DNA of 63,722 nt, filler included, from Reclinomonas americana ATCC 50394 (Eukaryota), in NCBI GenBank assembly GCA_048213135.1. It is 17 parts of 17 records of this genome, joined end to end, with 100 filler letters (N's around TTAATTAATTAA, not from the genome) between each part and the next. Parts side by side here need not be neighbours in the genome. Positions count along the whole stretch, not along the records: positions 53,014 to 58,446 come from AFZH01023493.1; 16 more parts are not named here. The stretch is one strand, 5' to 3'. Shown piece by piece: positions 53,069 through 56,536 of this stretch. Made by a program: the position numbers and the translations under genes. The notes under the pieces are model-generated. The model was not told the origin of the DNA and ran no database searches. It worked only from the letters and a program-made list of their open reading frames with translations. Position 1 is the first letter of the stretch. Each line of letters begins with the position of its first letter.

Positions 53069-56000
53069 CTGTGCTGCAGCCAGCACTCGAGAATGTTGGG
53101 TTCCACGTCTGCTCCTTTGCCGATGTGAAGGGTGTGCGCATACACACTGTGCTTGATGAATTTGTTCGCAACGAGGTGAACGAGGAGTGCGAGTGTGTAC
53201 TGCTCTTCTTTTCTGGCCACGGACAGGCGAGTGATGAAGATCTATTGCTCCTCCCGCATGATGTCAACCGAATCCCGAGACCGCGTTTGGTGAGTTTCTC
53301 AGTGCATGTCAGCGAAGACGTGTTCTGATAATGGCGGGTGCAGCTAAGTGGCGAGAAATCGCTGAAGCTCGTCGAGCACTGCATGATCCAGATTCGGCAG
53401 AAGACTTCAAGGCGCACGGTGGTGATTTTGTTGATGAACTGCTGCCGTTCCATTGACGGGTATGTACTAGAGAGTTGGACAGCGCTATATGTGCTTGTGA
53501 TATCTCACTATCGTCCGTGCGCGCCGAGCACAGCTCAGTAGTCTCTCCGATTGATGAGAAAGTATTAGCGGACAACGTGTTCTCTGGCTTTGCGTGTTAT
53601 CATGGAAGGATGGCATACGAGGGTGGTGAGTGGCATGTGGTGTAGCCTTTCTGCTGTTTGTTGATGTTGCTGACTGCCAACGACCTGGGGGTTTTCAGAT
53701 ATTTCATCTCCATATGTGCGGGCTCTTGTGCATTGTATCAAGGAGCATGGTTACTTGCCACTGCCTGTCTGGCATGAGCAGGTGAGACTCAAGTTGCCAG
53801 ATATGATACAACTAGGACAAGAACAGGAAGCTGTCCATCGATACCGCCTGTTGGCGCAGGAACTCGATGAGTTTCGATTGAGCTTGCGTCCAGGTGAGCC
53901 TACTTTGTTATCATTCTGTGTTGAATTGCAGCAAAGACAACTTCTGACCGCCGGGTGTCGCAGGTATGCACGCGTTGTGCCGTCGTGAGCTATCGTTCTA
54001 TGAAAACGACGAGAGCGTGCGCAAGGACATGCAAATGTATGTTCCACTGCTGTGCTCACGGGAGCGGGAGTCGCATGAGATGACGGATCTGTTGTCGGAG
54101 GTGGACGCCTTCCTCGCCGACGCCAACACCACACAGCGTGTGTTGGTGCTGTTTGGCAACAGTGGCGCAGGCAAAACCACCACTATGTCGGTGTTGGCCG
54201 AGCGAGCGTGGCGACAGTGGCAGACACGAGAGAGTCGGCGAGTGCCTGTGCGTGTGCCTCTTGGTGCTCTGCGCAATGCCGATGAACGACTGTTGGAGGA
54301 GGCACTTGAGCGACTGTCGCCCGAGTTGGGATTGGGGTCGGATGTGCGACGGTTGAAGGAGGAACCACTGTTGTTGTTACTTGATGGGCACGATGAGTTG
54401 TATCGTGGTGTGAATTTGTTTGTCAAGAACCAGCTGGATGTGTGTCGCGATGTGAAGGTGATTATCACCTGTCGTGGCGATTACGCTTTGACGACACTGG
54501 GTGGAGTGACACAGTATCGACGGTACTTTGCACCAGTGGATGCACGAGGACAGTTGTGCATGCACCAGCTGATGGAGCGACACATTGCGCCGTTCAACAA
54601 GGAGCAGATTGAGCAGTACTTTGAGCGACTTGTGCAAGTGGATGGTGGTGATGATTGTGATGACGGTGATGTGCGATGGTCGACTGCCGAGGAGTACATT
54701 ATTGCACTGAAAAGTGTGCATGGACTGGATGCACTGGTGTCGAATCCATTCCTGCTGGCAGTGATGGCTCGTGTGTTACCGCAGTTGGTGGCGAAGCGAG
54801 TGAAGCGACCGACTCGGTGTGATGTGTTTGACCGATTCATTCGACAATGGATTGAGAGAGAGCAGGAGAGGCAGACACGTCTCGATGCGGAACGTGTGCC
54901 GAGTGAGGAGACATGTCTCTCGTTCTGCGAGGGACTGGCTCGGTTGATGCATGAGAGGAATGTGGTGCGTGTGTCTGTGATGGAGAATGACAGGGGGGAC
55001 GGAGAAGAGGATGACTTCGGTGGTGCGCCACTTGCCGGTGAGCGAGTCGAAGTGGCACCGTTTGACAAGTTCCTTGGAAAGAAGAACCAACATGTGCGAG
55101 TATGCTGTCCGATTGTTCGACGATATGGGACGGCACAATGGGGCTTCGTGCATCTGTCGTTGTTGGAGCATTGTGTGGCGCGGTATGTGTTCGCGTGGGA
55201 GACGTGGGATGAAGAGAGGAGGATGCCAATACGAGATGTGCAGCAGCATGTGCTGGGAGTGAGATTGCTGAACGACAGACCATCGTTGGTGGAGCAGATG
55301 GCCGAGGTGGTGCGACGATCTCCTCGACTGCAAGCGAGACTGTGGGAGGTGATTGGGTTGTCGCGTGAGGTGGATGAGGAGCGACTGATGACGGCAGCCG
55401 CAAATGCAGCCACGGTGTTGTGTGTGGCTCAGGTGTCGTTCAGTGGGCGAGATCTGTCGGGTGTGCGAGTGCGGGGTGCGGATTTGAGGGATGCGGTGAT
55501 GCACCGGACGTTGTGGAGGGGGGCGGATTTGCGAGGGGTGAATGTGTGCATGGCGTTTGCGAGGGAGGCGGATTTCAGGGGGGCGGATTTGATAGAAGTG
55601 AAGTGGCCAAGGAGGCCAATGGTGGGGCACGCTGGCCAGGTGATGTCTGTCGCTGTCACTCCCGATGGCCAGCACATTGTGAGTGGCAGTAAGGACAAGA
55701 CTGTGCGGGTGTGGTCGGTGGCAAGTGGCGAGGAGGTTCGCCGACTGGAAGGACACGCGAGTGTGGTGTATGCAGTGGCAGTGACGCCCGATGGCCAGCT
55801 TATTGCGAGCGTCAGTGGAGACAAGACTGTACGGGCGTGGTCGGTGGCAAGTGGCGAAGAAGTGCGCCGACTGGAAGGCCACACGAGAGAGGTGTGTGCA
55901 GTGACAGTGACACCCGATGGCCAGCACATTGTGAGCGGCAGTTGGGACAAGTCTGTAAGGGTGTGGTCATTTGCTAGTGGCGAGGAGGTGCACCGGCTGG

Positions 56001-56536
56001 AAGGCCACACGAGTGAGGTGCGGGCAGTGGCAGTTACACCCGATGGCCAGCACATTGTGAGTGGCAGTAAGGACAAGACTGTTCGGGTGTGGTCGGTGAC
56101 AAGTGGCGAGGAGGTGCGCCGACTGGAAGGCCACTGGAGTGTGGTGTCTGCAGTGGCAGTGACACTCGATGGCCAGTACATTGTGAGTGGCAGTTGGGAC
56201 AGAACTGTACGGGTGTGGTCGGTGGCAAGAGGTGATGATGTGTGTCTGCTGGAAGGGCACACGAGTGGAGTGTTTGCAGTGGCAGTGACGCCTGATGGCC
56301 AACACACTGTGACTGGTAGTGGAGATAGAACTATACGGGTGTGGTCACTGGCGAGTGGCATGGTGTGGCGCCAACTGCAATGCCACACGAGTGAGGTGAA
56401 TACGGTGGCAGTAACACCCGATGACCAGCGCATTGTTCCACGTGAGAAGGATGCAGCTGTTGTGTGTCGTCGTGAAGGGTTGCTCGAGCGTATTCTCGGC
56501 TCCTTCCTGCGTGATTTCACCGATGTCGCCCTTTGA
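53069..56536 (+). CDS. NLR-like STAND receptor: caspase-like (peptidase C14) protease - NACHT - pentapeptide repeats - WD40; exons 53069-53289, 53344-53459, 53534-53625, 53699-53893, 53964-56536; 5' exon(s) missing
   Basis: Protease: LENVGFHV, LLFFSGHG (His 53218), ILLMNCCRS (Cys 53443), FACYHGRMAYEG|DISSPYVRALV. NACHT: Walker A GNSGAGKTT, Walker B LLLLDGHDE, VIITCR, NPFLL, FVHLSLLEH. Then AAANAATVL + pentapeptides and 6-7 WD40 repeats. All intron phases are compatible. Confidence 0.92.

Follow-up and report, generated by a model that had tools for sequence, protein, structure and literature searches.

The 63.7-kb window analysed here, which is the whole stretch of Reclinomonas americana ATCC 50394 DNA under study, probably holds one 5'-incomplete eukaryotic gene for an all-in-one protein of the STAND/NLR type, in which a Peptidase_C14 (C14) domain with an intact His/Cys dyad would be joined through a linker to a NACHT module, a short beta-helix of pentapeptide repeats and a WD40 propeller of seven blades. 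The window is composed of 17 contigs (1.1-10.5 kb, GC content 40-65%) that are joined through N44-TTAATTAATTAA-N44 linkers, for example at 52914-53013 and 58447-58546, and genes on either side of a linker are not genomic neighbours. The gene of interest lies on the plus strand of a 5,433-bp contig (53014-58446) that has neither N nor linker inside it.

Exon structure and domains of the candidate gene

The contig opens with the 3' end of an upstream intron (53014-53068, plus strand), a CT-rich tract that ends in CAG and is cut by the contig start. Since the acceptor of exon A closes this tract, the contig starts within an intron, and position 53069, which the initial annotation had taken as the start of the feature, is therefore an acceptor and not a gene start. 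The intron tail has its AG at 53067-68; another AG, at 53078-79, provides an alternative acceptor, with which exon A would begin at 53080. On the same strand, exon A (53069-53289) carries the large-subunit part of the C14 domain, exon B (53344-53459) a strand and the loop with the catalytic Cys, exon C (53534-53625) the putative start of a small-subunit-like half (FACYHGRMAYEG) and exon D (53699-53893) the putative end of the C14 domain (SPYVRAL...) together with the linker to NACHT. Exon E (53964-56536), which falls within an open reading frame (ORF) at 53948-56536, is intronless, encodes the NACHT, pentapeptide and WD40 parts and ends in a TGA stop.

These exons are separated by four introns on the plus strand: intron 1 (53290-53343; 54 nt, GTGAGT...TGCAG), intron 2 (53460-53533; 74 nt, GTATGT...ACAG), intron 3 (53626-53698; 73 nt, GTGAGT...TTTTCAG) and intron 4 (53894-53963; 70 nt, GTGAGC...CGCAG). 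A branch-like CTGAY motif lies upstream of the acceptor in three of the four, as CTGAT in intron 1 and as CTGAC in introns 3 and 4. All four are GT-AG introns that end in CAG and are in phase, and their removal yields a single open frame of 1064 codons, which the loss of any one exon would break, as read from the phases. Strong donor hexamers (GTRAGY/GTATGT) occur exactly four times in 53014-53965, at the four proposed donors, against a mean of 1.47 in shuffled sequence. The exon structure is self-consistent, and the in-phase joining of four small exons to the large ORF, as initially annotated, is borne out. Codon-usage log-odds are weak and speak for the proposed frame in exons A and D alone.

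Exon A by itself exceeds the Pfam cut-off for Peptidase_C14 (34.4 bits versus 21.4; E = 2.4e-8), matching profile positions 30-94 of 233, and 29 of the 30 feature matches that it obtained in the ESM Atlas fell within the PF00656 set. The catalytic His is located in this exon, in the SGHG of FFSGHG (codon 53218-53220; His50 of the spliced frame), and the catalytic Cys, 57 residues away, in the NCCRS of LMNCCR in exon B (codon 53443-53445; Cys107). Support for exon B comes only from its context: it has no Pfam match of its own and adds to the alignment when joined to exon A. In this regard, a local C14 hidden Markov model (HMM), prepared from 43 ORFs with His/Cys motifs from 54 bacterial loci, mostly cyanobacterial, aligned residues 22-109 of the spliced protein through the A/B junction (19.5 bits) and placed SGHG opposite fSGHG and NCCRS opposite DcChS, that is, with the dyad in register. 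Likewise, the hhalign score rose from 41.3 for exon A to 50.2 for exons A and B together, and exon B alone aligned at the columns of the Cys motif with P 0.011. Homology at the sequence level supports both a predicted C14 large-subunit half and the splice between exons A and B, in agreement with the C14 protease with a His/Cys dyad that had been proposed.

Global hhalign of the whole domain returned a probability of 87% over 200 columns, and in MAFFT and global hhalign alignments FACYHGRMAYEG and SPYVRAL fall at the conserved small-subunit-like motif sites of the family. Exons C and D may represent the small-subunit-like half, the resemblance being colinear and only positional. For exon D, the ESM Atlas gave weak leads only, namely clusters in which 14% of the members carry PF00656 and 20% carry PF01650, at scores of 0.88-0.89. 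All four motifs quoted in the initial annotation (FFSGHG, LMNCCR, FACYHGRMAYEG and SPYVRAL) are present, and its reading of the last two as small-subunit motifs holds for their order along the chain and not for their scores, which are given below.

Searches for closer kin of the protease part returned little. Exon A had no match in the PDB by phmmer; a search against 5.8 billion proteins, made at lengths beyond the 40-128 amino acid (aa) range, gave 15 candidates, none of which scored; and the spliced C14 region had nothing significant among the retrieved proteins by phmmer or BLAST. A regular expression for the His/Cys motifs had no matches over 170 proteins, the pattern being too strict: it missed P0158, a C14-bearing protein described below.

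The NACHT nucleotide-binding oligomerisation domain (NOD) module extends over 54137-55393 on the plus strand, with the Pfam NACHT match at 54137-54631 and a helical and winged-helix part that continues to about 55393. NACHT is the best STAND family (33.4 bits versus a cut-off of 26.7), with nSTAND1 at 22.1 versus 27.1; the 17 Pfam families listed at E<=1 do not include NB-ARC, and none of CARD, PYD and NB-ARC is found among the Pfam matches of the gene. A Walker A motif, defined as GxxxxGK[ST], is present as GNSGAGKTT (54155-54181), and a Walker B motif, defined as hhhhDGxDE, as LLLLLDGHDE (54368-54397); the Walker residues G64, G67, K70, D140 and D143 are invariant across 34 aligned relatives. 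The AlphaFold model of the NOD and pentapeptide part, obtained with a 34-row alignment, reached a pLDDT of 88.5 and a pTM of 0.87; an earlier model from a 7-row alignment, with a pLDDT of 55.5, was discarded. The best Foldseek matches of the NOD model in the PDB are NLRC4 (4kxf), NOD2 (5irm) and NLRP3 (7alv), with E from 8e-12 to 2e-11, a probability of 1.00 and a TMq of about 0.5.

Between NACHT and WD40, at 55394-55624 (plus strand), lies a pentapeptide-repeat part (Pfam Pentapeptide, 30.6 bits versus a cut-off of 20.2), which takes the form of a regular beta-helix in the AlphaFold model, with a strand per five residues and a pLDDT of 95-98. It is followed at 55625-56506 (plus strand) by seven WD40 repeats of 42 residues each, encoded by 126-nt tandem units of which the last is degenerate (Pfam WD40, E = 2.3e-70); TRF reports a period of 126, 6.2 copies and 80% matches. 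Repeats 1-6 share 69-87% DNA identity, and their variation is found mostly at repeat positions 3-5, 7 and 23. Fungal non-self recognition NLRs of the HNWD/HET-E type also carry highly similar WD40 repeats with few variable positions. Together, Pfam, HMM and structure matches support the proposed order of a caspase-type protease, NACHT, pentapeptide repeats and WD40 in one spliced eukaryotic gene; the profile searches that had been suggested as a check place C14 (through exon A), NACHT, Pentapeptide and WD40 above their cut-offs, with no match for exons B, C and D taken singly (0/3).

Repeats of the same type are found on a further contig of the window (33354-38777), which contains two tandem WD40-repeat ORFs on the minus strand, at 34699-35841 and 37950-38777, with the pattern VAVTPDGQHIVSGS...VRVWS...GEEVRRLEGH of the main gene. 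Their C-terminal tails are near-identical, the second ORF is truncated by the contig end, and neither NACHT nor C14 is seen upstream of them on that contig. The shared repeat type points to a gene family with such repeats in this genome, and a wider family of genes like the one described here may exist as well.

Relatives and known systems of similar layout

With the NACHT part as query, an exhaustive HMMER search retrieved 1443 proteins (E<=1e-3), of which 808 reached E<=1e-10 and 36 reached E<=1e-30. The best match, P0021, is a 178-residue ORF from an expressed sequence tag (EST) of Reclinomonas americana (EukProt), with an in-frame core identity of 138/146 (95%). To judge from this EST-derived ORF, a jakobid transcribes a NACHT gene nearly identical to that of the query, and the protist source assumed by the initial annotation is plausible, in view of this ORF and of the spliceosomal-type introns. 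The remaining matches are about 30% identical to the query. Among 30 matches of the search that were checked by name, there were the EST ORF itself, nine from Mortierellaceae, one from Mycoavidus and seven with generic metagenome labels. A scan of prokaryotic genomes found eight loci: five belong to metagenome-assembled genomes (MAGs) of Mycoavidus and one to a Nitrospirae MAG, and the last two, both weak, come from Trichodesmium and from a Peribacteria MAG. The named relatives are 27-32% identical over 84-99% of the query and colinear with it through NACHT, pentapeptide and WD40 (query residues 186-986 in the phmmer domains of L001 and 225-973 in those of L005). These data show that the gene has genuine NACHT, pentapeptide and WD40 parts, which run colinear with those of a bacterial and fungal NACHT-pentapeptide repeat-WD40 (NACHT-PPR-WD40) family.

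At their N-termini these relatives differ from one another, with ARM_5/TPR in two Mycoavidus ORFs, no domain detected in one, and Metallophos in the Nitrospirae MAG relative, and this variety on a shared NACHT-PPR-WD40 core fits a swappable effector slot. The last case is L005, a Nitrospirae MAG contig whose ORF from 4927 joins a calcineurin-like phosphoesterase (Metallophos, E = 6.6e-14), as another occupant of that slot, to the NACHT-pentapeptide-WD40 core.

A combination closer to the one proposed here is found in P0158, an NCBI-derived protein of 1589 aa, which has a Pfam Peptidase_C14 match (E = 4e-19) within its first 401 residues and of which the remainder aligns colinearly to query residues 216-1040 (28% identity, E = 1e-108). 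As is proposed for the query, P0158 and P0172 bring C14, NACHT, pentapeptide and WD40 together. P0172 (1638 aa) is encoded on the same 217,783-bp contig and is 96% identical to P0158 over residues 85-400; the two are tandem paralogs, rich in lysine and asparagine.

In a FastTree phylogeny of 137 rows, the query has a branch 1.25 long and is paired with the long-branched P0142, and the smallest well-supported set that includes it comprises 65 rows, among them 10 from Mortierellaceae and 4 from Mycoavidus. Given these long branches, the NACHT tree does not settle the origin of the gene.

Bacteria often combine a protease and a STAND sensor in a single chain. Passages of Asplund-Samuelsson et al. 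(2012; PMC3501461) describe Metacaspase-NACHT-WD40 proteins as widespread in bacteria, with a cyanobacterial form that adds pentapeptide repeats between NACHT and WD40 and so has, in one chain, the same four-domain order as the query. According to sections of Dyrka et al. (2014; PMC4986451), an N-terminal metacaspase is common in bacterial STAND proteins and the all-in-one layout may be ancestral, and parts of a preprint by Kibby et al. name caspase as one of the peptidases that serve as effectors in bacterial NACHT proteins. In a sample of 121 cyanobacterial genomes, 62 gave C14 matches; with the NACHT-PPR query, none of the 121 gave a match at E<=1e-8 when up to 11 candidates were scored in each. 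All five large cyanobacterial C14-...-WD40 ORFs that were scanned contain nSTAND1 and not NACHT, are without pentapeptide repeats and match the query in WD40 only. Taken together, the nSTAND1 module, the match confined to WD40 and the count of 0/121 speak for a shared design with no demonstrable descent. The query further differs from the cyanobacterial C14 proteins in that no close kin of its NACHT part was found in the genomes sampled and its gene is eukaryotic, with introns.

The closest named relatives belong to the NACHT-PPR-WD40 receptors which, in passages of Ciach et al. (2024; PMC11291939), are common to Mycoavidus endosymbionts and Mortierellomycota and are read as a case of gene transfer; they resemble the query as a bacterial family within eukaryotes. 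However, the N-termini of the Mycoavidus and Nitrospirae relatives are not C14, and the query, on its long branch, is not nested among them in the FastTree phylogeny. Fungal NLRs that carry a protease domain (CHAT, S8) at the N-terminus, as mentioned in parts of PMC9815663 and PMC4986451, and those of the HNWD/HET-E type share with the query a eukaryotic single chain that unites an effector enzyme, a NOD and repeats. They differ from it in the effector, which is Peptidase_C14 in the query and not CHAT, S8 or HET, in the presence of the pentapeptide module and in the jakobid-like protist host.

With Apaf-1 and the NLR inflammasomes the query shares the NOD fold, as seen in the NLRC4, NOD2 and NLRP3 matches, a WD40 sensor as in Apaf-1 and, as we infer, an oligomerisation-driven activation of a caspase. 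In those animal systems, however, the caspase is a separate protein that is brought in via CARD or PYD adaptors, whereas the protease of the query would reside in the same chain.

Our literature search found no paper on a jakobid NACHT or a Reclinomonas metacaspase, and a protist C14-NACHT fusion is not described in the titles and abstracts covered. The one-chain C14-NACHT layout appears not to have been reported previously for jakobid-type eukaryotes. The wider novelty claimed by the initial annotation was too strong, given the same four-domain order in the cyanobacterial proteins, as passages of the 2012 report have it (PMC3501461), the bacterial and fungal NACHT-PPR-WD40 core in parts of PMC11291939, and P0158.

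One probable gene and its alternatives

Several observations weigh against a single gene for an active C14-NACHT-PPR-WD40 protein. Exons C and D have no Pfam match and are not recognisably caspase: the two together reach an hhalign P of 0.21, their real score against a C-terminal C14 profile is matched by 487 of 2000 shuffles, and that against P0158 by 860 of 1000. Exons B and C have codon-usage scores that do not favour the proposed frame. C14 profile positions 1-29, which should hold the first strand, are missing from the contig, and no further C14 fragment was found in the six frames of the whole window. This N-terminal part is missing from the data, which does not show it to be missing from the gene; with the first ~30 profile positions absent, the completeness and the activity of the C14 domain are putative. 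Since the gene runs off the contig at its 5' end and the C14 match starts only at profile position 30, the protein as read is incomplete, and the term 'self-contained', as first applied to it, was an overstatement. The EST covers only residues 70-215 of exon E and spans none of the four splice junctions. Furthermore, among 170 proteins compared (NACHT relatives and others), a C14 match at E<0.01 to the local profile was obtained in one, P0158. The C14 domain of this protein is of a different, animal-caspase-like type (its best PDB match is caspase-7, E = 1.9e-10, with caspase-3 also close) and has no significant similarity to that of the query; P0158 also differs from the query in its 15 WD40 stretches, and the NACHT parts of the two do not group in the FastTree phylogeny, where the query occupies a long, poorly placed branch. 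The C14 fusions of P0158 and of the query may be independent. Part of this evidence would also be expected if the locus held two units, that is, a functional NACHT-pentapeptide-WD40 gene starting at ATG 53966 and, upstream, C14-like exons that form a separate small gene or a decaying effector relic. ATG 53966 lies only 2 nt past the last acceptor, and a shorter NACHT-only product from it is possible; if intron 4 is retained, the frame of exon D stays open to a stop at 53989-53991, where the small gene would end, although a gap of 70 nt leaves little room for a promoter. The absence of significant caspase similarity in exons C and D, the weak codon-usage support for exons B and C and the 169 of 170 proteins without a C14 match point in the same direction, yet a relic or a separate gene sits poorly with strong, in-phase donors in all four introns, with exon frames free of stops, and with a His and a Cys that are intact and in register. 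Moreover, the NACHT relatives usually have several hundred residues N-terminal of their NACHT match. We consider the two-unit arrangement unlikely, with enough in its favour to be kept in mind.

If the single C14-NACHT-PPR-WD40 protein is accepted, its role could be other than immune, for instance that of a regulatory protease in signalling, in the sensing of prey or symbionts, or in development. No known anti-phage defence family matches the gene: PADLOC 2.0 gave for the NACHT part a single match, to mad8, which is at the level of the P-loop and extends over 32 residues (E = 5e-4), and none for exon A, and NCBIfam gave nothing informative. Neither is there a neighbouring gene that points to a substrate, the remainder of contig 53014-58446 having no clear ORF and no candidate substrate gene, and the function of the Mortierellomycota NACHT-PPR-WD40 proteins is treated as an open question in the pertinent part of PMC11291939. 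On the other hand, parts of PMC4986451, PMC9815663 and the Kibby preprint place STAND proteins with an enzymatic N-terminus mainly in the contexts of conflict, non-self recognition and cell death. The similar but variable WD40 repeats, too, recall the fungal non-self recognition NLRs. A non-immune role seems improbable to us. More improbable still is an artefact in which bacterial contamination or a chimeric contig has joined an unrelated C14 and NACHT. Such an event would be conceivable in a highly fragmented assembly (17 contigs, each between 1 and 10 kb, whose GC content varies as widely as stated above) from an organism whose group eats bacteria, as jakobids do, and for a gene with bacteria among its nearest relatives. 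The C14 part, however, is broken up by GT-AG introns, which are absent from bacteria, and the contig contains no N or linker. The NACHT part is 95% identical to the jakobid EST-derived ORF, the GC content at third codon positions is alike in exons A-D (0.58) and in the NACHT part (0.61), and the WD40 repeat type recurs on a second contig of the window.

Proposed mechanism, origin and the rest of the window

For the single C14-NACHT-PPR-WD40 protein, analogy with NLRs, apoptosomes and bacterial STAND proteins suggests the following mode of action. The WD40 propeller, with repeats that vary at few positions, would bind a ligand, and this binding would free the NACHT module for nucleotide exchange and oligomerisation. 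Oligomerisation would in turn gather the N-terminal protease domains and allow their activation by proximity, and the cleavage of targets could then lead to a defence or cell-death output. Both this mechanism and an immune or cell-death role are inferred from those better-known systems, and the labels 'immune receptor' and 'apoptosome/inflammasome-like' of the initial annotation claimed more than such an analogy provides.

Regarding the origin of the gene, a bacterial-type NACHT-PPR-WD40 sensor is likely to have entered a eukaryote by gene transfer, and the C14 module would have joined it before or after that event. The introns are distributed unevenly: the C14 coding sequence has four within ~0.6 kb, whereas the sensor exon has none over 2.57 kb, where ~16 would be expected at the upstream density. 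This asymmetry fits the fusion of an older, intron-bearing protease to a recently acquired bacterial sensor, and it also fits the 5'-biased introns that are known from intron-poor eukaryotes. That the protist itself, a free-living flagellate that feeds on bacteria, made the chimera, from an intron-rich C14 and a recent bacterial sensor, and thereby arrived independently at a eukaryotic one-chain 'apoptosome' for defence or regulated death, is a speculative and rather unlikely scenario. Nothing here supports the bolder variant in which the layout was inherited vertically from early eukaryotes.

Should a spliced and transcribed jakobid C14-NACHT-WD40 gene be confirmed, a bacterial-style layout would extend to a deep-branching unicellular eukaryote, the NACHT-PPR-WD40 family would gain a non-fungal eukaryotic case, and a simple system would be at hand for asking whether oligomerisation alone activates a fused caspase-family protease. 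Such a gene leaves the known picture of these architectures unchanged, and its value hinges on its full 5' end and on transcripts.

Elsewhere in the window, 40 other long ORFs were scanned, and for 38 of them Pfam gave no match at E<=1e-4. An ORF at 19526-20140 on the minus strand showed weak coiled-coil matches (CCDC93_CC, E = 7e-7; HOOK, E = 9e-6), both under the Pfam cut-offs. The contig at 51661-52913 (GC 0.41) consists almost entirely of degenerate repeats, has no family match and reads in several frames as low-complexity ORFs of the KKEKKENQSLS-like kind. On the contig of the main gene, CT/GA dinucleotide microsatellites are located at the ends or close to them, at 53014-53032, 57545-57599 and 58361-58413, and they may be the cause of the assembly break here.

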